Sequence record: KY295893.1
Direction: 5' to 3' (one strand)
Origin: Escherichia phage vB_EcoP_D
DNA length: 44,931 nucleotides
A program made the position numbers and the translations under genes. This document shows, in pieces, positions 3,317 through 32,570 of the stretch; positions within the stretch are counted from its first letter, which is position 1, and every line of letters begins with the position of its first letter. The notes beneath the pieces were generated by a model, which saw nothing but the letters and a program-made list of their open reading frames with translations, searched no databases and was not told the DNA's origin.

Positions 3317-3494
3317 AGAGTTCTTCAACCTTCTCTTGGATAGCTTCTACAGAAAGACCAAGCTCTTCTGCATCAGCTAGTAAGGTATATGGCACTTCCA
3401 TGCCACAGGATAAAGTTTCAAAGATAGCTTCTGCTACCTCAACTGCACGAGTTGCCTTCATGCTATCAAAAGAAATCTGGTTCATCTTTGTCAT
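3279..3494 (-). CDS. hypothetical acidic protein
   Basis: 71-aa ORF with acidic C-terminus (EEETDDFI), packed between ligase and GNAT genes. Confidence 0.4.
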   Translation of the reverse strand: MTKMNQISFDSMKATRAVEVAEAIFETLSCGMEVPYTLLADAEELGLSVEAIQEKVEELYGTDEEETDDFI

Positions 3495-4413
3495 GTCTTA
3501 ATTCTCCAGCTTTGGGCAGACGAATGTTGCCCTTGCTTGAATCCTGAAGACCTTTTACTTCAAAGATTTTACCAATGACATTCAATCGTCCACCGTGTTT
3601 AATATCGTGGAACATCTGTTCTGCATCTGCATGAGTCCACCCTTTACCTAACATAGCTTTGATTGTCTTTCCTCCTTTCCATTTGAAAATGAGGTTAGCT
3701 ACCTTACCTTTGTACTTACCTTTGCCTTCTTCAAAGCCAATACAAGTAAGGTCATAAGTTACCTTACGGACTTCTTTAGTCTGACGATAACCTTTGTGGC
3801 CTGCTTCATAATCACAGTCCAGTTTAAACACAGCACCCTCTCGGCCTGCGTCTATTTGCTCTTGCGCAAACGCTTCAACTTCTCGCTCATTATGGCAAGG
3901 AGTAATAGGAAGGATAGCGTTGTACCCGCTAAGATGAGCGCCGATGCGACGATGTAAAGCATCGTAACGTTTGAGATAAGAAACATCAGTGAATCCATCA
4001 TGGAATGCCTTAATAGTTAACATATCGAAGAAGTCAATATACAGGTTGTCTTTAATCTGCTGGCCTATGAAATCAAGTGGCTCTGTGCGATTAGGGTTAA
4101 CTACTCCAGAAAGTGCTTCAAGGTAGACATCAACAGCCATAGATTGCAACTCACCGAGATAAATGCCAGTAGGGAAAGCTGAATAAGATTCTTCCAAGGT
4201 TTCCGTGTTAGCCAGTTTCTTTCCAGTGCGTCCAAAGACACCAACGACACCATCGTTGCGAACAACCACAGCACTAAATATCCCATCTCGTTTTACCTGT
4301 GCATAACATGGAAAAGTTAATTTCTTCTCAGGTACTTCACCGCGATGTTTCACCAGCATGAATGGGTGATTGCGGTGGTCTTCTGGAAGACCTAGGAATT
4401 GGAAGATATTCAT
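3466..4413 (-). CDS. ATP-dependent DNA ligase
   Basis: 315-aa ORF with the adenylation motif KxDG (KRDGIF); strong RBS GAAGGAGGTGAA before ATG 4413; size matches T7 gp1.3-class ligases. Confidence 0.8.
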   Translation of the reverse strand: MNIFQFLGLPEDHRNHPFMLVKHRGEVPEKKLTFPCYAQVKRDGIFSAVVVRNDGVVGVFGRTGKKLANTETLEESYSAFPTGIYLGELQSMAVDVYLEALSGVVNPNRTEPLDFIGQQIKDNLYIDFFDMLTIKAFHDGFTDVSYLKRYDALHRRIGAHLSGYNAILPITPCHNEREVEAFAQEQIDAGREGAVFKLDCDYEAGHKGYRQTKEVRKVTYDLTCIGFEEGKGKYKGKVANLIFKWKGGKTIKAMLGKGWTHADAEQMFHDIKHGGRLNVIGKIFEVKGLQDSSKGNIRLPKAGELRHDKDEPDFF

Positions 4414-4601
4414 TTCACCTCCTTCATCACACCTTTAACTATTGCCTCTTTAAAGTATGCTAAGTCAGAACCATAGGCACTTAGGAACCACATTGCACCT
4501 TCATCATTGGAGGTCAATACAAAACCAAGAGGGCTTACTCTATATAAGTTACCGAAGTACCCTCTATATAGTTTACCTTCCATATTAAATATCCTCATCA
4601 A
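4410..4601 (-). CDS. hypothetical protein
   Basis: 63-aa ORF; its TGA stop overlaps the ligase ATG. Confidence 0.4.
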   Translation of the reverse strand: MMRIFNMEGKLYRGYFGNLYRVSPLGFVLTSNDEGAMWFLSAYGSDLAYFKEAIVKGVMKEVK

Positions 4602-5055
4602 TACATTCGTGACGATGCTTCTGGAATAGCTCTTTGTAGTAGTCTGCTTTCTTCAGATCTTCTTCCGTGTTGAATTTCTTCCCTGCACGCAGACGATACT
4701 TCAAAGCATTACCCATGCAATATCCAGCAAATTGCTTCTCGGTCATACTACGAGCAATGATAGTGATTGCCTCTACCCCATCGAAGAACTCGTAGTGCTT
4801 AGGCTTAGTAACCATATTGTTGTCCAACGTGCTAGGATCTTCACCTTGCAATGAGTCAACAACCTTGAAGTAAGGTGCATACCATTCGCGCTTCTCAACA
4901 CCTTCTAACATGATAGAGTTATAATTAGGTTCTGCACGGGATACTTTGAATACCCCATCTGGTTTCTTGTCTAGGCTTTCACACAGTTTATTCCAGATGG
5001 CATCTCGGTAAGCTGCACGGCGTACGACGTATTCGCCAATATAAATCTTTGACAT
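4585..5055 (-). CDS. hypothetical conserved phage protein
   Basis: Track ORF 4585..5070; ATG at 5055 (MSKIYIGEY) has RBS GGAGGAA. No family recognised with confidence. Confidence 0.5.
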   Translation of the reverse strand: MSKIYIGEYVVRRAAYRDAIWNKLCESLDKKPDGVFKVSRAEPNYNSIMLEGVEKREWYAPYFKVVDSLQGEDPSTLDNNMVTKPKHYEFFDGVEAITIIARSMTEKQFAGYCMGNALKYRLRAGKKFNTEEDLKKADYYKELFQKHRHECIDEDI

Positions 5056-5106
5056 AATTAATTCCTCCATTCACTATACAATCAAGGGCAAGCTAATACC
5101 TACCCT

Positions 5107-5129
5107 TTGTTCTATAGTGTCAACTAAAT
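5107..5129 (-). promoter_or_regulatory. phage RNAP promoter, SP6-type subclass (ATTTAGTTGACACTATAGAACAA)
   Basis: Minus-strand 23-mer matching the SP6 consensus ATTTAGGTGACACTATAGAAGAG at 17 of 18 positions from -17 to +1; predicted +1 G at 5112; intergenic, upstream of 4585..5055. Confidence 0.6.
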
Positions 5130-6131
5130 CTTACCAATCCAGCGATTGTCATTATTGGTCTGCATCGGGACAATGTGCGGCACACCCTCCAGAATAACCA
5201 CACAACCTAATGCTGGCTTGTATTTGGACTCACGACCATAGGCAAATGCACGAGATGACTCATCAATCAAACAGCCTCCCTGCACAGCCCAATACTGTTC
5301 ATGGGTGTTACGTGCATACTCCACCGACATCTTCCCATGCAAGTGACCACACACTAAGTTCATGCGCTCATGTGCTGCATCTGCTAGGACAGCGCCAGCA
5401 GGTTGATGCTTGAACGCCACCTGCTCACCATTAGGTAGCTCAAGTACATGCGTATGCTGCCAGTCCCACTGGTCGCCACCTCCCTGCGGGAAGAAGACTT
5501 CACGGTATGTGCGCAGGTATTGCACAGGGATGCCATGAGCACTGGCCTTACGGAAATGTAAGGAGCCATGATTAGAGTGGCAGATGCGCATTACAGGGAA
5601 CATCTTATGTAATTTACGCATGAAGATACGAGCCTTCTCTAACTCCATACCAGCCGAATCCAGATTAGGATCTGACGTATGGAATGAAAGTGCGTGCTTG
5701 TCCGCCTCATCACCAAGATGAACTACAGTGTCTGGACGGTAACGTGCTGCCACCGCTGCCAGAAACTCTAATGTATCTGGATGCTCATAAGGTGCATGGG
5801 TGTCAGGTATTACCAGTACACTTCGATGAGGCGAGTCAGGCAATGGTACAATAGCCAAATCCTCGTAGCGGTCAGGAGTCCTGAGCTTACGTTCTTCTTT
5901 GATAGCACGGTTCGCAATAGCCAAGGTTTCATACGCCTCGCCATTCTTCTTCCGCTTTTCAAATTGTTTGGCCCAATACTTTGCAAGCTGCCTTGTAACT
6001 GTAGTCCCGTGTGTGTTATCTGAGAGAATAGACGCCATTAGGCGATAGTTGATAGTGCCATCATCCCGCTTTGCACTTTCAACTGCTTCTTCTACCTCCT
6101 TATTAGTAAACAAGTTTCTAATCTTACCCAT
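5124..6131 (-). CDS. calcineurin-like metallophosphoesterase
   Basis: Metallophosphatase signature pieces VIPDTHAPY, HLGDE and GHLH; ATG at 6131 (MGKIRNLF) overlaps the HNH stop by 1 nt; track start at 6143 is TTG. Confidence 0.7.
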   Translation of the reverse strand: MGKIRNLFTNKEVEEAVESAKRDDGTINYRLMASILSDNTHGTTVTRQLAKYWAKQFEKRKKNGEAYETLAIANRAIKEERKLRTPDRYEDLAIVPLPDSPHRSVLVIPDTHAPYEHPDTLEFLAAVAARYRPDTVVHLGDEADKHALSFHTSDPNLDSAGMELEKARIFMRKLHKMFPVMRICHSNHGSLHFRKASAHGIPVQYLRTYREVFFPQGGGDQWDWQHTHVLELPNGEQVAFKHQPAGAVLADAAHERMNLVCGHLHGKMSVEYARNTHEQYWAVQGGCLIDESSRAFAYGRESKYKPALGCVVILEGVPHIVPMQTNNDNRWIGKI

Positions 6132-6562
6132 TATTCTTTCCAAACCCTCCCGCTTACAATATCACTAATGGTAGCAGGTGAGACATTATATAGCTTAGCT
6201 AGTCGTAACCTCTCACCTTTCTTATTAGCAACATATGTTGCCCTGATAGCACGTACAACATCCCAAGTTAGTTTAGCACGATTATTATTTTCTCCTGCAA
6301 AGCTAGCACGTCTGCCTCGATCTATCATATCTTGTATGTTGTCCTGCTGTGTACCAGATATTAAGTGTGCAGGGTTTATACACCTTGCATTATCACAAGT
6401 GTGTCTAATCACTACATCCTTTATATCCTCTATAGAAAGGCCGTGGTGCTCTGCATAGACCACGCGATGAAGTAATTGTAACCTCTTACTAGGTTTATGC
6501 CACGACCTGTAGTAACCTAATTGATTTAAGCATTTATAATGCCCGTGGTCTATACAGTCCAT
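6131..6562 (-). CDS. HNH homing endonuclease, free-standing
   Basis: Contains the HNH core VIRHTCDNARCINPAHLISGTQQDN; ATG at 6562 (MDCIDHGHYK) with RBS AAGGAG right after the upstream gene's stop. The track's N-terminal extension overlaps the upstream gene and is not believed. Confidence 0.8.
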   Translation of the reverse strand: MDCIDHGHYKCLNQLGYYRSWHKPSKRLQLLHRVVYAEHHGLSIEDIKDVVIRHTCDNARCINPAHLISGTQQDNIQDMIDRGRRASFAGENNNRAKLTWDVVRAIRATYVANKKGERLRLAKLYNVSPATISDIVSGRVWKE

Positions 6563-6563
6563 A

Positions 6564-6965
6564 TCATACTCCTTTCTTTCTTGCATAAGCAAGGCGTGCC
6601 TTACGGTTCTTAGCCTCGCGCTTCTCTGCCTCCGTTTGATGTTTGTGATATAACTTATCTGTCTGAGGCGTACTATGTAACTTCCAGTATTCATACAGTC
6701 GTTCTAACCATTGAAGCTGGAAGTAACGGTTATTACCTGCCTTGCCATAACCAGAGATAACACCCTTAATCTTCCCTTCCGCACCATTGCAGCCTCGGCA
6801 TACAACAGCGCGGCAGAATCCTGTCTCATGGTCATGGTCAAGTACACGGTTTACAGGTGTGACAGCTTTGAGACTGCCGCCACACAGAGGGCATTTCCAG
6901 CCTTGCTTATCCAGCAATTCCTTCTTATAAGCTGCCACCTCCGATGCTTTTAATTTGCTAACCAT
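6564..6965 (-). CDS. endonuclease VII-like Holliday-junction resolvase
   Basis: 133-aa ORF with CPLCGG...LDHDHETGFCRAVVCRGCN, resembling the T4 endonuclease VII zinc/HxH region. Confidence 0.7.
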   Translation of the reverse strand: MVSKLKASEVAAYKKELLDKQGWKCPLCGGSLKAVTPVNRVLDHDHETGFCRAVVCRGCNGAEGKIKGVISGYGKAGNNRYFQLQWLERLYEYWKLHSTPQTDKLYHKHQTEAEKREAKNRKARLAYARKKGV

Positions 6966-7978
6966 TCCGCATCATCTCCCCACAAGATTGGGTTCTTATC
7001 GGCTCGCCATATATCACCTTTGAATCTAGCCATGTGAGCTAGGCGACCACATTCAAGCATCAGGTCAAAGGCTTTGCCGATACGATAACCACCTCGGTAA
7101 TTCTTAATCTTAACTTGTCCATGCCCGAACTTAGCCTTGTAAGCACCCAGCACTGCCATGTACAACTCTTTCTCTGTCTTACAATCTTTGAGAAGATCAT
7201 AGGCATATTTAGCACCACGACCTGGTATGCCAGCATAGTTATCAATATCATCACCGATAATCATCTGTGCATAGTGGAACATGAGGCCAGCACCTTTTAG
7301 ATCTTTGACTTGCCCATTAGCCTTACGGCGTAGCTCAAGCCAGCCCATAGGCTCTACCCACTTCTTCTCTTGACCCGGCTGTAGATGCCAACCGGGAACA
7401 ATCATCAAATCCTTATCCAAGGAAACGATGCAAGTATCAGAGAATGCTTTATGCTCTGGACTACCGATAGGGAACTCGTTACCTGTATCTTGCTGGAAGC
7501 GGCGGTGGCTGTCCCATTGTGCGATACTCATGAGGTCGTCTGCTTCCTCTCCATCTGCCAAGATTGCACCGTGAACCTCTAAGAGATGCTCTCGCAATTC
7601 ATAGAAGAATGGAGGCTTCTCGGTCTTACGTTGGCCTTTATAAGGCTTGGTGAATGCTAGGCGGACACGGAAGTTAGCTTCTGATTTCGTCATGAATAAC
7701 TTAGCTGCATCACATTCTGCTGCATACACCCAAGAGTTAAGCAAGGAGTTCACACGGTCACACGCTTGCTTACACTCAGGCGTATCTTTGATTGATGGGA
7801 CTTGTCCTGACTTAACACGAGTTGTGGCTCGTACATAAGTCATGTCGCTGATTGTATACGCGACGATGTAAGGCAACATATCGGCATCTATTAAAGCGAT
7901 TCGATTACCTTCAGTCGGCCACAGGATGAGATTATTGTCTTCCGATACTGTAGCTCCGAAGTCGAAGTTTGGTCGCAT
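6950..7978 (-). CDS. 5'-3' exonuclease (T7 gene 6-like, FEN family)
   Basis: N-terminal ALIDADMLPY and GEEADDLM motifs; ATG at 7978 with RBS AAGGAG; track start 7987 is GTG. Confidence 0.8.
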   Translation of the reverse strand: MRPNFDFGATVSEDNNLILWPTEGNRIALIDADMLPYIVAYTISDMTYVRATTRVKSGQVPSIKDTPECKQACDRVNSLLNSWVYAAECDAAKLFMTKSEANFRVRLAFTKPYKGQRKTEKPPFFYELREHLLEVHGAILADGEEADDLMSIAQWDSHRRFQQDTGNEFPIGSPEHKAFSDTCIVSLDKDLMIVPGWHLQPGQEKKWVEPMGWLELRRKANGQVKDLKGAGLMFHYAQMIIGDDIDNYAGIPGRGAKYAYDLLKDCKTEKELYMAVLGAYKAKFGHGQVKIKNYRGGYRIGKAFDLMLECGRLAHMARFKGDIWRADKNPILWGDDAEWLAN

Positions 7979-8163
7979 GTAGGCCACTCCTTCAAGAAGG
8001 AGGACACCGCATCATGGAGGTTCTGTCTTAACCAATAGTCATCCCATTGTCTCACCTCCACTAGCTTCTCACCAGTTTTGTAATCATAGGCAACCCCAAT
8101 ATACTGTCTGGTGATTGCATTGTAGCTAATGTCCAGTTCAATTCGAGATTCAATAGTCGGCAT
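7891..8163 (-). CDS. hypothetical protein
   Basis: 90-aa ORF with ATG 8163 and RBS GGAG; its last 88 nt overlap the exonuclease start in another frame. Confidence 0.4.
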   Translation of the reverse strand: MPTIESRIELDISYNAITRQYIGVAYDYKTGEKLVEVRQWDDYWLRQNLHDAVSSFLKEWPTCDQTSTSELQYRKTIISSCGRLKVIESL

Positions 8164-8280
8164 AATTCATTCTCCAATAACTATTACGCAAAAGACCCTG
8201 CCTACACTAAGGCAGACAGGGCATTAGATGAGGTGAGCGTGATAGTCAACTAGGACTAAAAGAGGCTACACCTGCTATTA

Positions 8281-8652
8281 TCAAAACTCTTCCTCTTCGC
8301 TAACCGGAGCTTCCGGTGCAGACACTTCTACTGCCGGAGCTTCAGCTTCTTCAGCAGCTTTAACTTCTTTCACTGGTTTACCAGCAGCAATCCAATCCAG
8401 ATATTCAGCTACGATGTTAGCCTTACCGATCTGGGCTTTGTCAGCCTGCTCAGGGAAGCAAGCACGAGCGAACTCCAGACCATCAGCGAAGTTACCCATG
8501 CTGTCAATCTTAGCCTGAGCTTCTTCACGGGTATCGTAAGCCTTAGTACCAGCTACCAGTTGATCAGCTTCATCAACGATAATGAAAGACTCAACGGATA
8601 CCAGAGCAGCACCTTTAACAACACGGTTTACGATAGTTTCAATCTTGAACAT
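8281..8652 (-). CDS. hypothetical protein with acidic C-terminal tail (ends SEEEEF)
   Basis: 123-aa ORF, RBS AAGGAG; Ala/Glu-rich C-terminus ending in Phe. Confidence 0.5.
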   Translation of the reverse strand: MFKIETIVNRVVKGAALVSVESFIIVDEADQLVAGTKAYDTREEAQAKIDSMGNFADGLEFARACFPEQADKAQIGKANIVAEYLDWIAAGKPVKEVKAAEEAEAPAVEVSAPEAPVSEEEEF

Positions 8653-8702
8653 ATTAAATTCTCCTTTTGTTGGTTATGGCATTATCGCCGATTAAAATTC
8701 TT

Positions 8703-8725
8703 CTCTTCTATAGTGTCCAGTAAAT
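8703..8725 (-). promoter_or_regulatory. phage RNAP promoter, main subclass (ATTTACTGGACACTATAGAAGAG)
   Basis: Minus-strand match to the repeated consensus; +1 G at 8708; intergenic, upstream of 8281..8652. Confidence 0.6.
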
Positions 8726-8740
8726 ACCGGACACCGATTT

Positions 8741-8756
8741 GTCTCACACGTGAGAC
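8741..8756. repeat. 16-bp palindrome GTCTCACACGTGAGAC
   Basis: Perfect-arm palindrome GTCTCAC-NN-GTGAGAC, intergenic, ~15 bp upstream (transcript sense) of promoter 8703..8725. Confidence 0.7.
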
Positions 8757-8757
8757 T

Positions 8758-8976
8758 TTATAAAACTGTGTTCACCTGAGCAATGTCATGCGCCGGAAGC
8801 GATACGCCGTGGCGTTTCCCCGTAGCTGGGTCGCTGTAGTTCACCACGTGCTGTCCGTCGCGCCAGATGTAGTGCAGGTCGGCATATGTGTCCCCTTCAG
8901 AGAAGGAGTGAAAAGTGTTGCCGCCAAGAGTTGTAATTCCTTTCTTGCAGTGCAGGGTTACGATTTGTACTTTCAT
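8758..8976 (-). CDS. hypothetical protein
   Basis: 72-aa ORF with RBS AAGGAG. Confidence 0.5.
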   Translation of the reverse strand: MKVQIVTLHCKKGITTLGGNTFHSFSEGDTYADLHYIWRDGQHVVNYSDPATGKRHGVSLPAHDIAQVNTVL

Positions 8977-20306: not shown

Positions 20307-21191
20307 TTACTTAGTCAACTCTTCTACTGCCTCAGAGATTAAGGGCCATGCTTCATGGCCTTCACCGTAGCCTAGCTTAACCAGTTCGCGGCGTGCCTTG
20401 TTAACTGCTGTTTTCTTCGTTGCCTCCTCAGCGCTTAAACCTAAGCGAGCATAGAAGCAGGAAGATTTGAATTGCGGCAGCATAGGCGCGGCTGCCTTCT
20501 TGCTTTCGCGTGCGCTACTTAAGGAGGCGATGCGGTCATTGGCTGCCTGTAATTGCTCAGTCAGTGCTTTAATTTGTGCCAGCAGACCAGCAATAGCGGC
20601 ATTCTCAGTATTAGCCGTGTTATCCAGCGGCGCGGCCTTCGGTGCCTCCGGCTTGCTTTCCTCTTCCCATGGTGCTGATTCGTCGGCCTCCTGCTCGCTC
20701 GCGGGTGGCACTACCTGCGGCGCTTGCATTTCCTGTGATTCTGCGGCCTCAGTCGCGTTCTCCTGCGGTTTTACCGCCTCAGCCTTAGATTGTACCGTTT
20801 CAGTCTTTATCTCTTTCTTAGGTTCAATCAGGGCGTTTACGGCATTAGTGTCCAGCTTGCCAGCTGCGGCGAGTTCTGCGGCCTTCTCCATGATTATATT
20901 TTCATCAGCGAAAGGAACAAGCGCCAGCATTACACGCATAGCCACACCTTTAAAGCGTTCGTCTCCTTCAAAGACACGGGCTACACTCATCAGCTTGTAG
21001 CATTGTGCCTTCTTGATGCCGAACTCTGATTCTACATAAGCTAAAAAGTCTTTTTGACCTTCGAAATCACCGCGTAATTCATTCAGACAAGCGCCAACTT
21101 TGATGTAAGAAGTGCCGATATTGTCTAAGTGCTGCTTGATTTCAGCGGTTGCAGCTTCACGAACAGACAGAAGGGTGTTTTCAGTAGTCAT
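20307..21191 (-). CDS. hypothetical early protein with acidic low-complexity middle and coiled coil
   Basis: 294 aa from ATG 21191 (RBS AAGGTG); track start 21200 is GTG. No family recognised. Confidence 0.55.
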   Translation of the reverse strand: MTTENTLLSVREAATAEIKQHLDNIGTSYIKVGACLNELRGDFEGQKDFLAYVESEFGIKKAQCYKLMSVARVFEGDERFKGVAMRVMLALVPFADENIIMEKAAELAAAGKLDTNAVNALIEPKKEIKTETVQSKAEAVKPQENATEAAESQEMQAPQVVPPASEQEADESAPWEEESKPEAPKAAPLDNTANTENAAIAGLLAQIKALTEQLQAANDRIASLSSARESKKAAAPMLPQFKSSCFYARLGLSAEEATKKTAVNKARRELVKLGYGEGHEAWPLISEAVEELTK

Positions 21192-22319: not shown

Positions 22320-22361
22320 GATAGTTCACCTTTGTTAGTAAGCCTATCAAGACACAAACCA
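22296..22361. repeat. 66-bp direct repeat, copy 1
   Basis: Identical to 22396..22461, exactly 100 bp apart. Confidence 0.85.
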
Positions 22362-22395
22362 CGCTCTTTAACAATATGGGTAGTCGCTTCTTAGT
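22362..22395. repeat. 34-bp inverted repeat, right copy
   Basis: Reverse complement of 22081..22114; sits between the two 66-bp direct repeats. Confidence 0.8.
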
Positions 22396-22461
22396 GCGTT
22401 TACGTTGTGCGTTAGTCATGATAGTTCACCTTTGTTAGTAAGCCTATCAAGACACAAACCA
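22396..22461. repeat. 66-bp direct repeat, copy 2
   Basis: Identical to 22296..22361; carries a second copy of the RBS and ATG, giving an alternative 35-aa ORF. Confidence 0.85.
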
Positions 22462-23475: not shown

Positions 23476-23698
23476 AGTTAATCCCTCATTCAATAAGTAA
23501 TTAACCACGGCATACACAGGTTACACTAAGCAAATTGTTAAAGAGCATTGCGCTAACCTTGGTTTATCGTGGTAGGTTATGCTTGCGCCATCTTCCACTA
23601 TCTAACATTGTTTAACGGCTTCAGTAGCTAGGCCGGATAGTTAAGGACGCTCTCTATCATTCACCCTGAGTGTTTAATGTCGCTCCCGACTGATTGCT

Positions 23699-23727
23699 AA
23701 TGTATACCTGTTAACTGCCTATGTCAA
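23699..23727 (-). promoter_or_regulatory. candidate host sigma70 early promoter (-35 TTGACA, 17-bp spacer, -10 TACATT)
   Basis: Minus strand reads TTGACA-taggcagttaacaggta-TACATT, with an AT-rich stretch upstream; lies between the short-repeat array and the first early gene. Confidence 0.5.
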
Positions 23728-23794
23728 CACTAAATCGCACTAAGATAGATTATTTATGTGATACCTGTCACAACTGCTAAGGTAAACCTAGGTT

Positions 23795-23810
23795 GTCTAA
23801 CGTGTGAGAC
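23795..23810. repeat. palindrome-like element GTCTAACGTGTGAGAC
   Basis: One arm mismatch relative to the GTCTCAC-NN-GTGAGAC family; upstream of the early promoter. Confidence 0.5.
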
Positions 23811-29427: not shown

Positions 29428-29450
29428 TCCTTCTATAGTGTCCGGTAATT
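29428..29450 (-). promoter_or_regulatory. phage RNAP promoter, main subclass (AATTACCGGACACTATAGAAGGA)
   Basis: +1 G at 29433; overlaps the terminase stop codon; upstream of the paralog pair and lysis genes. Confidence 0.55.
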
Positions 29451-30180
29451 AATAAGTCCTTGAAATCCTTGCAGAAAGTGTATTTCTGCTTGCCGATTTA
29501 CTCCTGTAATTCTGACCGTATACTCTTTGCTGCATAGCCACGGAAGTGTTGGTTACTCTTCGCTCAGTGCCATAATCTCCATAGAGCATTGCCCTACGGA
29601 GGTGAGGTGTGTTCATAGCTTGGATATAATCGCGCATCTCCTGCGCTCTGAGGCGATTAATCCGTGTAACCTCGTCATAGTCTATCTGAGAAGTTAATTG
29701 CCGTATAGCGCCATACAGCGCGTCTAAGCGGTCATCGTGCCGGAGGCTGTTCTTCTCAATCGTGATGTTCGACATTTGATTGAAAAGGCTGTATGACATG
29801 CGTAGTTCAAGCGGATAGTGCTGTACCGACTCAAAATCAGACTTGACCATCTCTGCGTTGAAGATGAGCCTGTGGGCCGCCATTAGTGGCTCTAGTGTTT
29901 CAATGATACGCAACTCTTTCTGTCCGGTGGCGTAATCTTCCTCCAGAGTCACAGGCCACTCTCGTTCAAAGTATGGCTTTATAACGGCCTCAAACGCGCC
30001 ATGACCAAAGTTCTTTTCAATGAATACCTCTTTAACACCTGCCTGCTTTGCGGCCTGCACAATGCGATTCAGGGACGATTCGCGGTATCCTCCCGGCACA
30101 CCAAAGCACTGATACACATAAATGAATGTGCCGTGCAGGAAGACGATAGCCACACCCGTTTCATCCCCATTCTTACCTCC
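29449..30180 (-). CDS. terminase large subunit, exon 2 (nuclease domain)
   Basis: Encodes GGKNGDETGVAIVFLHG... and a downstream HDDRLDAL acidic motif; in frame with exon 1 after removal of 30181..30926; spliced product ~633 aa. Confidence 0.75.
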   Translation of the reverse strand, partial: GGKNGDETGVAIVFLHGTFIYVYQCFGVPGGYRESSLNRIVQAAKQAGVKEVFIEKNFGHGAFEAVIKPYFEREWPVTLEEDYATGQKELRIIETLEPLMAAHRLIFNAEMVKSDFESVQHYPLELRMSYSLFNQMSNITIEKNSLRHDDRLDALYGAIRQLTSQIDYDEVTRINRLRAQEMRDYIQAMNTPHLRRAMLYGDYGTERRVTNTSVAMQQRVYGQNYRSKSASRNTLSARISRTY

Positions 30181-30706
30181 CGGTTTGAACGTGACGTGCG
30201 AGCCAACCCTTGTGGTGTTTACGTAAACCATGTGCCACCTTACGCATATTCTGAGGTGTTAGGTTGTGCTCTTTACAGAAGTCAGTAATGCAAGTTACAA
30301 GAAACTCTTCACCATCTGGAGAAGTGAATATGTAATCTTTGCCAGTACCTTTGTTGTAAGGTGTCATGCCTTTCTTGAACTCAGTGGCAACAGACAAGTG
30401 CTGTCCTTTCTTGATTTCAGTGGCAATACTTATGCGTTCACCTTTCTCGATGTTACCTGCTTTGCGATAACCACCTTTACCCTTATTCCAACCCATGTTG
30501 TCATGTGGGCGTAGCTTCTCTTCTAGTGCATAACACTCTTCTTTGCTACCAGTGAATAAGATAACGTACTCGCGGCCATCACAAAGACGGCCTGCACACT
30601 TGTGCTCTCTCATACGCTTCTTAATATCGGAGGTTACACCAATATAACCTTGCATTACATCAGTTTCACCAACAACACGAATATGATAAACTTTATGCTC
30701 TGTCAT
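30173..30706 (-). CDS. GIY-YIG homing endonuclease, intron-encoded
   Basis: 177 aa, RBS AAGGGAG; N-terminal KVYHIRVVGETDVMQGYIGVTSDIKKRMREH fits the GIY...YIG...R...E pattern, followed by repeated basic GxxxxxxxIATExKKG segments; stop codon lies 6-8 nt past the predicted 3' splice site. Confidence 0.85.
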   Translation of the reverse strand: MTEHKVYHIRVVGETDVMQGYIGVTSDIKKRMREHKCAGRLCDGREYVILFTGSKEECYALEEKLRPHDNMGWNKGKGGYRKAGNIEKGERISIATEIKKGQHLSVATEFKKGMTPYNKGTGKDYIFTSPDGEEFLVTCITDFCKEHNLTPQNMRKVAHGLRKHHKGWLARHVQTGR

Positions 30707-30926
30707 ATTTAACTCCCTTCAATTGTTACGTTAATTCGCTACTTTAACTTCTACTAGTCACCTAGTAGGTCGGACTATATCTTAGGCTTGCGCCTCCCTC
30801 TGTTTCAGACCGCTTGGCCTTACAGTTAGTCTCTACACGTTCCTGTTATTGCAACAGGCTTCGCTCGGTATTGTCTCAGTGAGAGTTCCACCGAATTAAG
30901 AGGGTTTTACGCTGGCAGAGGTGTTT
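30181..30926 (-). mobile_element. group I intron in the terminase large-subunit gene
   Basis: Intron RNA contains matches to the group I core elements: P-like AAUUCGGUGGAA (30886..30897), Q-like AAUACCGAGC (30863..30872), R-like GUGUAGAGACUAAC (30825..30838), S AAGAUAUAGUCCG (30771..30783). Predicted P1 pairs exon GCUGGU with GCCAGC (30911..30916) with a U.G at the splice site; predicted P10 pairs exon 2 GGAGGU with ACCUCU; last intron base is G. Confidence 0.75.
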
Positions 30927-32096
30927 ACCAGCGGGGTCAATGTACATAATTTTACGGGTGACAGCGCCCCATTCATACGGTCGGGCCACAGGGCGATACA
31001 TAAAGTCTGTAGGCTTATTGCCATACTTCGGTGCATCGCCAATGATGTTAATAGAGTCGTTGCTCCATGTAGGCATCACAGGGACTTCCTCTGTACCGAA
31101 TGAAGTGAAGATGAGGTTGTTCAGGCGTAGCGGATAGCGGTCAGCATCCATCATGCGAGTGTTAAGCATAAACTGAAGCTGGAACTTAGCCGCACCCTGC
31201 GAGATTTCCTTCTCAATCAGCACATCATCATCATACATTTCAGGTGCACAAGGGGCACCACTATTGCCATCCAAGCCATACCCTGAGCGAAGTGCTGGGT
31301 TGTCCTTCATATCCTGCACAATCATAGGTGCAAGGAAGTCGCCATAGCATTGCTCCTGCTCCACTGAGGGATAACGTGCAGTCCAGATACGAACAGAGTA
31401 ACCACGAGCAGGTAGGTTATTGTAGATAGAGTTTACGTTCTGAGGAGTACCAAGGTAGATAATATCACCAAACTGGTTAATAGATTCAAACTCCTTGGTC
31501 AGTTCCTCAAGCAAGGCACGTCCTGCCGCTGTACGAGCATTCTGCATTGACTCAACGTCATCTGCTAGGATGATATCTGCACGCGCACCCTGCATACCTG
31601 CTTCGATTGAGTAACAAGACACAGAAGGCGACTTGTCACTGCCACGTAGGGTGTAATGAATCTCAAATGCCTTAACTGAGGCACGGTCCCCTGCGTAGAT
31701 GTCCGGTAGCATAAACTCAAGAAAGTCTAGGCCACGGAAGATTTTAACTACCCAACCTGCGATTTCCTCTGCTCGCTTGGCGTTTTGGGATACAACCATG
31801 ATACGCTTATGCGGTTCATGAATGATACGGAATACTGTATAGATTGCTGATAGTGTTGTCTTAGCGATACCACGAGGCGCTTCGATGAGGCGATACTTGT
31901 GTCCGTAGAATAGGAACTTCAAGATATCAGCCTGCATACGAATCAGATGAGGGTTGCCTGCAATTAAGTTATGAATAACTGTGTCTGCAAAGAGAAGCAA
32001 ACCTTCCGCTGTGTAAGGAAAGGTCTGCTGTAACTCCTGTAGCATCTCCCATCTGGCAAGAGCCTCCGCTTGTGATTCTCTTGCCTTAGCCATCAA
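30927..32096 (-). CDS. terminase large subunit, exon 1 (ATPase domain)
   Basis: Encodes 390 aa up to ...KIMYIDPAG; track ORF continues 16 codons into the intron to a stop (...KHLCQRKTLLIRWNSH). ATG at 32093 follows an in-frame TTG at 32096. Confidence 0.8.
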
Positions 32097-32392
32097 TCCT
32101 CCTTAGTGAATTGAATAATCTTGCCACTTGATGCCTCTCGGATAGCCTTGAGGCGCTTAGATAGCTTGGACTCCTCCTGCTGTGCAGCGGGTGTAGCGGT
32201 AATACCATTATCAAGAACCCACTTACACATAGCTCCAATGTCTTTACCAGAGACTAAATGCAGTGCTGCATCTGGGTCTTCTTCTATAGTGTCCAGTATT
32301 GCCTGTGCTTTCTTATTAAAGATTTTGGTAATAGCACCATGTAGAATGCCAACCTCGTCTTCCGTAGCTGCATGTTTATTGTGTACGCTCAT
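32093..32392 (-). CDS. candidate terminase small subunit
   Basis: 99 aa from ATG 32392 (MSVHNKHA, strong RBS GGAGGAGGAG); assigned by position immediately upstream of the large subunit (T7 gene 18 position); no sequence motif recognised. Confidence 0.5.
   Translation of the reverse strand: MSVHNKHAATEDEVGILHGAITKIFNKKAQAILDTIEEDPDAALHLVSGKDIGAMCKWVLDNGITATPAAQQEESKLSKRLKAIREASSGKIIQFTKED
32279..32301 (-). promoter_or_regulatory. promoter-like sequence inside the small-terminase gene (CAATACTGGACACTATAGAAGAA)
   Basis: Core identical to main-class promoters, upstream AT-rich part weaker; +1 G at 32284. Confidence 0.4.
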
Positions 32393-32570
32393 GGCTCCTC
32401 CTCCATAGTTTAATCTTGGTATAAAACCAGTCTCCAATTTGCAACACGGTATAAATGAATGTTGCTATTAACACCCAATTATCCCAACTGATACCGAGGA
32501 AGTACCCACCTGATACTAATGCAGGTGGCGCCAGCTTCACACCACTATCTACCAGTTCGGAGTTAATCAT
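32376..32570 (-). CDS. candidate holin (T7 gene 17.5 position)
   Basis: 64-aa ORF with hydrophobic core WVLIATFIYTVLQIGDWFY and basic C-terminus KLWRRSHERTQ; sits between tail-fibre adaptor and terminase. Confidence 0.5.
   Translation of the reverse strand: MINSELVDSGVKLAPPALVSGGYFLGISWDNWVLIATFIYTVLQIGDWFYTKIKLWRRSHERTQ

Follow-up and report, generated by a model that had tools for sequence, protein, structure and literature searches.

A probable free-standing HNH homing endonuclease gene linked to a foreign phosphoesterase segment in Escherichia phage vB_EcoP_D

Analysis of Escherichia phage vB_EcoP_D (KY295893.1; 44,931 nt, here referred to as the window) identified a small HNH gene on the minus strand (6131..6562) which is probably a free-standing homing endonuclease gene that spreads by "intronless homing" and is likely to cut the phosphoesterase alleles of phages without the gene. 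Our confidence in this reading is good, with cleavage and homing deduced from sequence comparisons. Free-standing homing endonucleases are textbook phage biology, and the present element, carried by a K1-specific E. coli podophage (Vectrevirus), is of an ordinary and familiar type. The finding mainly confirms an ordinary feature, as the ORF is already annotated as "HNH endonuclease" or "endonuclease" (KY295892 and NC_047807). The paper describing these phages names a "homing endonuclease" only among the genes that differ between phages R and K, and does not discuss the present HNH gene.

The HNH ORF reads from 6562 to 6131 on the minus strand (ATG 6562-6560, TAA 6133-6131), encodes 143 amino acids plus a stop, and is a real gene that is seen in the sequence, in the Pfam and PHROG matches and in the existing annotation. 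All genes around 5124-6965 lie on the minus strand: the upstream neighbor encodes endonuclease VII (6564..6965; PF02945 Endonuclease_7) and the downstream neighbor, the presumed target gene, a metallophosphoesterase (5124..6131; PF00149 Metallophos and annotation). The PF02945, HNH_3 and PF00149 matches in this order confirm the gene arrangement proposed in the first-pass annotation, and both of the junctions that it described can be read directly in the sequence. The upstream junction (6563..6572, minus strand) consists of a GGAG Shine-Dalgarno sequence (6572-6569), the last endonuclease VII codons with the TGA (6566-6564), and one spacer base (6563) before the HNH ATG. At the downstream junction, TAATG (6129..6133, minus strand), the HNH TAA and the phosphoesterase ATG (6131-6129) have base 6131 in common. 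The ATG at 6562, which follows the GGAG, is also the start in the GenBank/RefSeq records; in the mechanical ORF list, the HNH frame reaches upstream to 6694.

This tight packing had been read as a mark of an inserted homing endonuclease, a view that we do not share. In phage K1-5, which lacks the HNH gene, the endonuclease VII and phosphoesterase genes overlap each other by 8 nt and are thus packed equally tightly. Genes are generally packed tightly in this genome, and their close spacing is not diagnostic of insertion. The AAGGAGG of the upstream junction serves a TTG start of the phosphoesterase gene in K1-5, and TTG is the phosphoesterase start in HNH-less Vectreviruses, in contrast to the ATG in the HNH-positive window.

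Domain searches and structure modeling suggest that the product is a small two-domain site-specific nuclease, with an N-terminal His-Me-finger (HNH_3) catalytic domain (approximately residues 1-82; 6317..6562, minus strand) and a predicted C-terminal three-helix helix-turn-helix DNA-binding domain (approximately residues 98-143; 6134..6271, minus strand). As had been suggested as a check, the gene was searched against HNH profiles, and residues 30-75 matched Pfam HNH_3 (PF13392) above its curated cut-off (33.1 versus 24.8 bits, E 4.2e-8). PHROG 6254, "HNH endonuclease", matched over the full length (E 9e-27), and zf-His_Me_endon under its cut-off (22.9 versus 27); NCBIfam gave no family for the HNH protein, and a PDB sequence search with it no match even at E 1. 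Eight residues (H54, C56, D57, C61, N63, P64, H66, and N75) are invariant in 15 homologs. In the structure model, strands 51-54 and 67-70 are followed by helix 72-81, a beta-beta-alpha-metal motif, and the predicted fold is similar to the solved His-Me nucleases I-HmuI and I-PpoI, with an added helix-turn-helix. Comparison of the HNH gene with the Klebsiella phage ortholog gave a dN/dS of 0.066 and with phage G9 one of 0.075; a value of ∼0.07 indicates purifying selection. Compared to the flanks, the HNH gene has only a moderately lower dS, and in the comparison with the Klebsiella phage its dS approaches saturation. In phage B, a 2-nt deletion cuts the protein short at residue 124, which we count as a sign of dispensability.

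Comparison of the junction in related phages, also proposed in the first-pass annotation, revealed a clear presence/absence polymorphism. The HNH gene is found between endonuclease VII and phosphoesterase in 11 of 102 related records, representing eight phages (C, R, K, B, G9, PDP21P6, Klebsiella K44PH129C1, and Koku), whereas endonuclease VII directly abuts the phosphoesterase gene in K1-5, K1E, LL11, T145P2, SP6, and others. The gene is thus sporadic at a single locus, with ∼90% of the close relatives lacking it. Presence in all relatives with conserved flanks, which would weaken a mobile interpretation, is not what the relatives show, and the sequence comparisons support the interpretation of the HNH gene as a mobile element.

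The difference between phages with and without the gene extends beyond the HNH ORF. Homology to HNH-less phages ends at the common Shine-Dalgarno sequence (6569) and starts again at 5904, so that the HNH gene is accompanied, in a block of ∼660 nt, by 227 nt of foreign sequence forming the 5′ end of the phosphoesterase gene. Within the phosphoesterase gene, this "type A" tract covers codons 1-76 (5905..6130, minus strand, from homology break-points and blastn); it cannot be aligned at the DNA level with HNH-less Vectreviruses, shows ∼50% amino acid identity to them, and was found by blastn only in HNH-positive phages. Its nearest relatives in phages without the HNH gene, at 61% amino acid identity, are from Aeromonas and Vibrio phages. 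On these comparisons, the type A tract is foreign to the Molineuxvirinae backbone. Two simple histories were rejected: a clean insertion, as 664 nt of the window stand in place of 234 nt in K1-5, and a deletion in the HNH-less phages, as their type B 5′ phosphoesterase allele tracks the backbone phylogeny (91% amino acid identity in SP6). The proposed insertion between the flanking genes therefore stands as regards mobility, but it was not clean, since the phosphoesterase gene also had its initial 227 nt replaced.

Further downstream, a 100-nt identity scan showed that the HNH-linked haplotype continues within the phosphoesterase gene (5501..5904, minus strand), with 98-100% identity to the HNH-positive phages G9 and PDP21P6 and 75-97% to HNH-less phages. 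The endonuclease VII gene is 94-98% identical to HNH-less phages, and there is therefore no HNH-specific haplotype on this side. The GC content of the HNH gene is 0.403 compared to 0.468-0.498 in the flanks. Moreover, the HNH tree and the backbone are incongruent: the protein of the Klebsiella phage shows 89.5% amino acid identity on a backbone of 78% nucleotide identity, and that of the Vectrevirus PDP21P6 only 71.5% on a ∼95% backbone. Both composition and phylogeny point to lateral transfer.

The same HNH-phosphoesterase layout is also present in Klebsiella Molineuxvirinae and in Drulisvirus. K44PH129C1 and pKP-M186-2.1 are 97.7% identical through exo, whereupon homology is lost over the HNH gene and the initial ∼180 nt of the phosphoesterase gene. 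Drulisvirus KpV71 carries a 55% HNH homolog directly upstream of the phosphoesterase gene, and in comparison to the HNH-less SU552A and Pone, homology starts again 123 nt into the latter; among Drulisvirus-related records, 17 of 254 have the homolog. Metagenomic phiKMV-like contigs show the gene order exo-endoVII-HNH-phosphoesterase, with 60% identity of the HNH protein. Because the break-points differ among lineages (227, ∼180, and 123 nt), they define no single target position. When HNH-less phages of different lineages were searched for a common DNA target motif in the 5′ region of their phosphoesterase genes, none was found; what these have in common is a (T/S)RQLxxYW motif at the protein level only, and the homology break-points lie on different sides of this motif depending on the lineage.

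These observations suggest the following course of events. During mixed infection with an HNH-less relative, the HNH enzyme would nick or cut the HNH-less allele, probably at a site downstream of the insertion point, no more than a few hundred bases away, in the 5′ portion of the phosphoesterase gene. The break would be resected and repaired from the HNH-positive genome, and repair would bring in the HNH gene together with adjacent donor sequence (co-conversion). The HNH-positive genome would escape cutting, as the allele of the 5′ phosphoesterase tract that it carries has diverged. We infer nuclease activity, the location of the target, immunity by divergence, and super-Mendelian inheritance from the sequence patterns described above. 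In line with this model, free-standing endonucleases of phages cleave at a distance from the gene that encodes them, with co-conversion of the flanking DNA (PMC2988022; PMC2790892; PMC2330249). The present gene combines features expected of a homing endonuclease: a separate ORF, a sporadic locus, signs of lateral transfer, and a linked donor tract whose pattern recurs in two further lineages.

Among known systems, the closest in organization are the T4 Mob endonucleases MobA-MobE and especially MobE (PMC2790892; PMC2988022), which are likewise free-standing HNH proteins, encoded in a lytic phage between conserved genes for DNA metabolism. They also combine an HNH domain with a presumed DNA-binding C-terminal region, are sporadically distributed, co-convert flanking donor DNA, and have their expected cut site in the neighboring gene rather than at the insertion point, as is presumably the case here. 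The likeness is one of organization: the present phage belongs to the SP6-like Autographiviridae, and its protein is much smaller (143 amino acids) and of the HNH_3 subtype. I-HmuI, the intron-encoded HNH nicking endonuclease of Bacillus phage SPO1 (PDB 1u3e), has the same order of parts, an N-terminal His-Me nuclease followed by a C-terminal helix-turn-helix. However, identity to I-HmuI is only 16-19%, the present protein is ∼30 residues shorter, the profile matches obtained for it do not include the central NUMOD repeats of I-HmuI, and its gene lies outside any intron between intact, separate genes.

The mechanism proposed here is that of the T4 GIY-YIG endonucleases SegB, SegF, and SegG, for which "intronless homing" and localized marker exclusion have been described (PMC2330249; PMC2988022). 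The likeness lies in the population signature, i.e., presence/absence polymorphism and a linked donor tract towards a distant cleavage site. The enzyme families differ (GIY-YIG versus HNH), and homing of the Seg enzymes was demonstrated experimentally, whereas that of the present gene is deduced. By description, the HNH genes of lactococcal Skunavirus (PMC12724721) and of Hafnia phage Ca (PMC8861465) are similar as well, being small, variable among close lytic relatives, and read as homing elements; they belong to other phage groups and insertion sites, and the Ca gene adjoins the terminase.

In contrast to I-HmuI, an intron setting can be excluded for the present gene, as an Rfam search of 4500-8800 gave no intron match even at E 0.1 and the flanking genes are complete. 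The sole group I intron found (RF00028, 30751-30999, minus strand; 61 bits versus a gathering threshold of 50) lies inside the large terminase gene and is followed by an ORF (30173-30706) with weak, sub-threshold GIY-YIG and NUMOD-like matches. The earlier claim of a second mobile nuclease, an intron-borne GIY-YIG enzyme, is thereby borne out.

The window contains six matches to SP6-type phage promoters versus none expected. The nearest one upstream of the HNH gene lies at 8705..8725 (minus strand) and the next at 5109-5129, past the phosphoesterase gene, so that this search assigns no separate phage promoter to the HNH gene. A scan of 4900-8300 for sigma-70 promoters and terminators gave sites no more numerous than in shuffled sequence; it is uninformative on independent HNH expression, and the SP6-type promoter search is more informative. 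In our reading, the HNH gene is co-transcribed with the middle (DNA-metabolism) genes, is translated from the ribosome-binding site that HNH-less phages use for the phosphoesterase, and is translationally coupled to the phosphoesterase gene by the TAATG.

Alternatively, the HNH gene could be a passenger, i.e., an old nuclease gene in a recombination-prone spot that is moved by ordinary homologous recombination without its own activity driving the transfer, and that may be inactive in homing or without a specific target. Recombination of diverged phages could by itself create the observed mosaic, and the exo-endoVII-phosphoesterase-kinase region is mosaic in general, including an unrelated swapped segment at ∼4800-5100, a swapped endoVII+HNH block in PDP21P6, and another HNH gene at the exo/endoVII junction in pKP-M186-2.1. 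Nevertheless, we regard this as unlikely: at least four lineages with differing upstream neighbors have an orthologous HNH gene immediately before the phosphoesterase gene, the linked foreign tract is always downstream and begins exactly at the insertion point, and the catalytic residues and the helix-turn-helix are conserved at the low dN/dS given above.

Somewhat less probable still is a useful, non-selfish phage function, in which the HNH protein would work with the DNA-metabolism module, e.g., by nicking for recombination or replication, in host DNA degradation, or on the substrate of the phosphoesterase, whose N-terminal domain would co-vary with it. Strong purifying selection over a long divergence is also expected of a gene useful to the phage, the HNH-phosphoesterase adjacency with translational coupling or overlap is kept across subfamilies, and the phosphoesterase N-terminal module does vary together with HNH presence; in Acinetobacter phage Abp1, this N-terminus has helix-turn-helix-type Pfam matches. 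However, the well-studied K1-5, K1E, and SP6 are among the great majority of close relatives that do without the gene, phage B carries a truncated copy, composition and phylogeny indicate lateral transfer, and paralogs are found at other junctions, with several copies in some genomes.

A role as a terminase-associated packaging factor of the HK97 gp74 type was rejected on position and distribution and is effectively refuted, as the HNH gene lies in the DNA-metabolism cluster more than 22 kb from the terminase genes (29449-32437), most relatives lack it and package DNA normally, and T7/SP6-type phages have direct terminal repeats and not cos ends. HNH proteins adjoining terminase genes are nonetheless common in phages (PMC8861465).

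Going beyond a free-standing homing endonuclease at this one junction, it is conceivable, although we consider it doubtful, that the HNH clade is a long-lived lineage specific to the phosphoesterase gene. Such a lineage would track the 5′ end of this gene through no fewer than two subfamilies of the Autographiviridae (Molineuxvirinae and Slopekvirinae) and uncultured phiKMV-like phages, each time bringing its own phosphoesterase N-terminal module, possibly a helix-turn-helix, and at the exo/endoVII junction, a sister clade would act likewise on endonuclease VII. Instead of being neutral hitch-hiking DNA, the swapped module could then both determine immunity and represent a functional variant. 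If this is true, a domain of a conserved phage enzyme is exchanged time and again through homing.

Therapeutic K1 coliphages with the HNH gene (R, C, K, and G9) and without it (K1E and K1-5) provide a natural test system. They are >95% identical in the flanks and have common hosts, and homing and marker exclusion are therefore directly testable. In phage cocktails, combining HNH-positive and HNH-negative relatives could bias recombination outcomes. The recurrence of an HNH gene with a replaced 5′ part of the downstream gene in several Autographiviridae lineages helps to explain the local mosaicism of their DNA-metabolism genes.

Every gene of the HNH region is carried on the minus strand, in the order 5′-3′ exonuclease (exo; 6950-7987), endonuclease VII (6564-6965), the 143-aa HNH ORF (6131-6562), metallophosphoesterase (5124-6131) and a DUF3310/"nucleotide kinase" gene (4585-5070). 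The tight packing of the HNH gene described in the first-pass annotation matches the sequence: the endonuclease VII stop codon (TGA, 6566-6564) is followed by a single spacer base (6563) and the HNH start codon (ATG, 6562-6560), and the HNH stop codon (TAA, 6133-6131) overlaps the phosphoesterase start codon (ATG, 6131-6129) in the motif TAATG. This packing alone, which had been read as typical of an inserted gene, is no sign of insertion, because the endonuclease VII and phosphoesterase genes of phage K1-5, which lacks the HNH gene, themselves overlap by 8 nt. Over 5000-8000 the window matches Escherichia phages vB_EcoP_C and vB_EcoP_R at 100% identity; both are placed in Vectrevirus (Molineuxvirinae, Autographiviridae; the K1E/K1-5/SP6 group). 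The phage C record is a circular permutation of the whole window; ∼140 nt of it (23662-23801) are absent from the window ends, and short gaps or overlaps relative to phage C, at window positions 21169-21186 and 22361-22396, fall at the ends of the C record.

The HNH ORF is a real gene, as indicated by a Pfam HNH_3 match of 33.1 bits (cut-off 24.8), which bears out its assignment to the HNH family, a match to PHROG 6254 (E 9e-27), and dN/dS values close to those of neighboring genes (0.066 in comparison with the Klebsiella phage orthologue, 0.075 with phage G9). An alignment of 15 homologues revealed invariant residues H54, C56, D57, C61, N63, P64, H66 and N75, whose pattern is that of the HNH_3 signature HxCDNxxCxNPxHL...N. 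In the AlphaFold model (mean pLDDT 84), two strands followed by a helix surround these residues, and a separate three-helix bundle forms the C-terminus; PHROG 517, "HTH DNA binding protein", covers residues 86-138. A sequence search for solved structures detected no relatives, and the best Foldseek match of the model, a weak one, was I-HmuI. The predicted protein pairs a nuclease head with a small tail for DNA recognition, as phage homing endonucleases usually do.

Conservation analysis covered 102 phage records that resemble 5000-8000 at the DNA level; only 11 of them, corresponding to eight phages (C, R, K, B, G9, Vectrevirus PDP21P6, and the Klebsiella phages K44PH129C1 and Koku), span at least 80% of this region. 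The remaining records, including K1-5, K1E, LL11, T145P2, ACG-C91 and SP6, align in two pieces and are ∼430 nt shorter. As their annotations place the phosphoesterase gene directly after endonuclease VII, and tblastn found close copies of the HNH protein (at least 70% identity) only in the same HNH-carrying phages, the presence/absence polymorphism expected of a mobile gene at this junction is real.

Pairwise blastn against HNH-less Vectreviruses showed that homology of 95-98% extends as far as 6569, the last base of the GGAG ahead of the HNH ATG, and returns at 5904. The same AAGGAGG stands before the phosphoesterase TTG start in K1-5, where 234 nt occupy the place of 664 nt in the window (6568-5905), so that the replaced block takes in the HNH gene along with 227 nt at the start of the phosphoesterase gene. 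Within this part of the phosphoesterase, the variant that goes with the HNH gene (type A; 5905-6130) and the allele of HNH-less phages (type B) share only ∼50% protein identity. The type B N-terminus tracks the backbone phylogeny (Vectrevirus 92-98%, SP6 91%, Klebsiella/Proteus phages 83-84%, Lelliottia phage 74%), whereas the nearest HNH-less relatives of type A, in Aeromonas, Vibrio and Marinomonas phages, reach only 61% identity. In blastn, the 226-nt tract matched only HNH-carrying phages, apart from two weak partial matches in Aeromonas phages. The type A tract is therefore not native to the Vectrevirus backbone and came in together with the HNH gene. In a 100-nt identity scan, the HNH-carrying phages G9 and PDP21P6 keep 98-100% identity to the window between 6130 and ∼5500, identity to HNH-less phages falls to 75-88% over 5800-5501, and no HNH-specific haplotype was seen upstream of the HNH gene. 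Thus, the linked region is one-sided, downstream of the HNH gene only. GC content is 0.39-0.41 over the HNH gene and 0.47-0.54 in its flanks. Another mosaic segment, independent of HNH presence, lies at ∼4800-5100 (minus strand) in the 5′ part of the DUF3310 gene, where K1-5 and G9 show only 49-61% identity and K1E, T145P2, LL11 and PDP21P6 95-99%.

The HNH gene of K44PH129C1 is 89.5% identical to that of the window in protein and 82.5% in nucleotide sequence, compared with 78% for the backbone. PDP21P6 carries a second HNH allele with a recombination history unlike that of the window: at a backbone identity of ∼95%, its HNH gene reaches only 71.5% in protein. The divergent block (window equivalent 6131-6965) comprises endonuclease VII (71% nucleotide identity) and the HNH gene (69%), and the type A tract beside it is 94.7% identical, so HNH alleles too have been reshuffled by recombination. 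In phage B, which shares 99.8% identity with the window in the HNH region, a 2-nt deletion (loss of TA from a TATATA run, window 6191-6192) ends the HNH protein at residue 124 and takes away the last HTH helix. This could reflect either an element in decay or an error in sequencing and, if real, would mean that growth without an intact HNH protein is possible.

Similar arrangements recur in other lineages. K44PH129C1 and Klebsiella phage pKP-M186-2.1 (M186), both Molineuxvirinae, are 97.7% identical through the exo gene, but at the DNA level M186 has nothing that matches the HNH gene of K44PH129C1 or the first ∼180 nt of the phosphoesterase gene that follows it. Between its own exo and endonuclease VII genes, M186 has a paralogous HNH gene (1668-2105; 43% identity to that of the window), and the endonuclease VII gene downstream of this paralogue is mostly diverged from that of K44PH129C1; this junction is a second HNH site, again with the appearance of an HNH gene joined to a gene whose 5′ part has been replaced. 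In KpV71 (Drulisvirus, Slopekvirinae), a 55% identical homologue, of a type found in only 17 of 254 related records, lies directly upstream of the phosphoesterase gene with an 8-nt overlap. Homology to the HNH-less phages SU552A and Pone ends 9 nt before the KpV71 HNH start and returns 123 nt into the phosphoesterase gene. The upstream neighbor differs from that in the window, so the phosphoesterase gene is the constant partner of the HNH gene. Two ∼44-kb uncultured phiKMV-like contigs have the order exo, endonuclease VII, HNH (60% identity), phosphoesterase; one such contig harbors an additional 101-aa HNH_3 ORF (4545-4850) just downstream of the phosphoesterase gene, which seemingly retains only profile positions 15-45, the C-terminal part of the domain, and may be a remnant. 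More distant homologues are found at other junctions: in Acinetobacter phage Abp1 one lies between exo and endonuclease VII, and in Shigella phage Buco one precedes the DNA polymerase gene. Several genomes carry multiple HNH copies. The Abp1 phosphoesterase homologue (3367-4302) shows Sigma70_r4_2 (E 2.5e-5) and HTH_23 matches N-terminal to its Metallophos domain; these helix-turn-helix matches suggest that the N-terminal phosphoesterase module exchanged together with the HNH gene may bind DNA.

SP6-type promoters, with six matches in the window and none expected by chance, flank the region on the minus strand at 8705-8725 and 5109-5129, so the HNH gene lacks a phage promoter of its own and is read within an exo-endonuclease VII-HNH-phosphoesterase transcript. 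It uses the ribosome-binding site that elsewhere serves the phosphoesterase gene, which is re-coupled via TAATG. The phosphoesterase starts with ATG in all HNH-carrying phages examined and with TTG in HNH-less Vectreviruses and Drulisvirus SU552A. A scan of 4900-8300 for sigma-70 promoters and terminators detected no excess of sites over shuffled sequence.

The first-pass annotation had also proposed a second, intron-borne GIY-YIG nuclease. The large terminase gene (29449-32096, minus strand) is indeed split by a group I intron (Rfam RF00028, 61 bits, gathering threshold 50; core at 30751-30999, minus strand). The 177-aa ORF that follows the core (30173-30706, minus strand) has only weak, sub-threshold matches to GIY-YIG (E 4e-4) and to an I-HmuI NUMOD-like domain (E 3e-4); RefSeq lists two "terminase large subunit" pieces and a "homing endonuclease" at this locus. 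For the HNH gene an intron setting is ruled out, with no Rfam match in 4500-8800, and its position rules out a role as terminase cofactor.

Together with the confirmed gene arrangement, these data support the interpretation of the HNH gene as a mobile, homing element. The HNH gene may instead have been carried along passively by ordinary recombination, or may have a useful role coupled to the phosphoesterase, but both readings are less likely, because the downstream partner is constant, the tract is one-sided and begins at the insertion point, the catalytic and DNA-binding parts are conserved, and the gene is missing in ∼90% of relatives. Homing without an intron, by contrast with these two, is the best reading, and the gene, already annotated as "HNH endonuclease" in public records, belongs to a well-known kind. 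In the scheme known from free-standing T4 endonucleases, the enzyme cuts an endonuclease-less genome some distance from its own gene, the broken ends are resected, the endonuclease-carrying genome serves as repair template, and the gene is co-inherited with flanking donor DNA, leading to localized marker exclusion (PMC2988022; MobE, PMC2790892; SegB, PMC2330249). No target sequence for the HNH enzyme was identifiable. Since the downstream tract is one-sided, our comparisons suggest that the HNH enzyme would cut HNH-less phosphoesterase genes within their 5′ part and that the carrier genome would be protected by its diverged type A tract.
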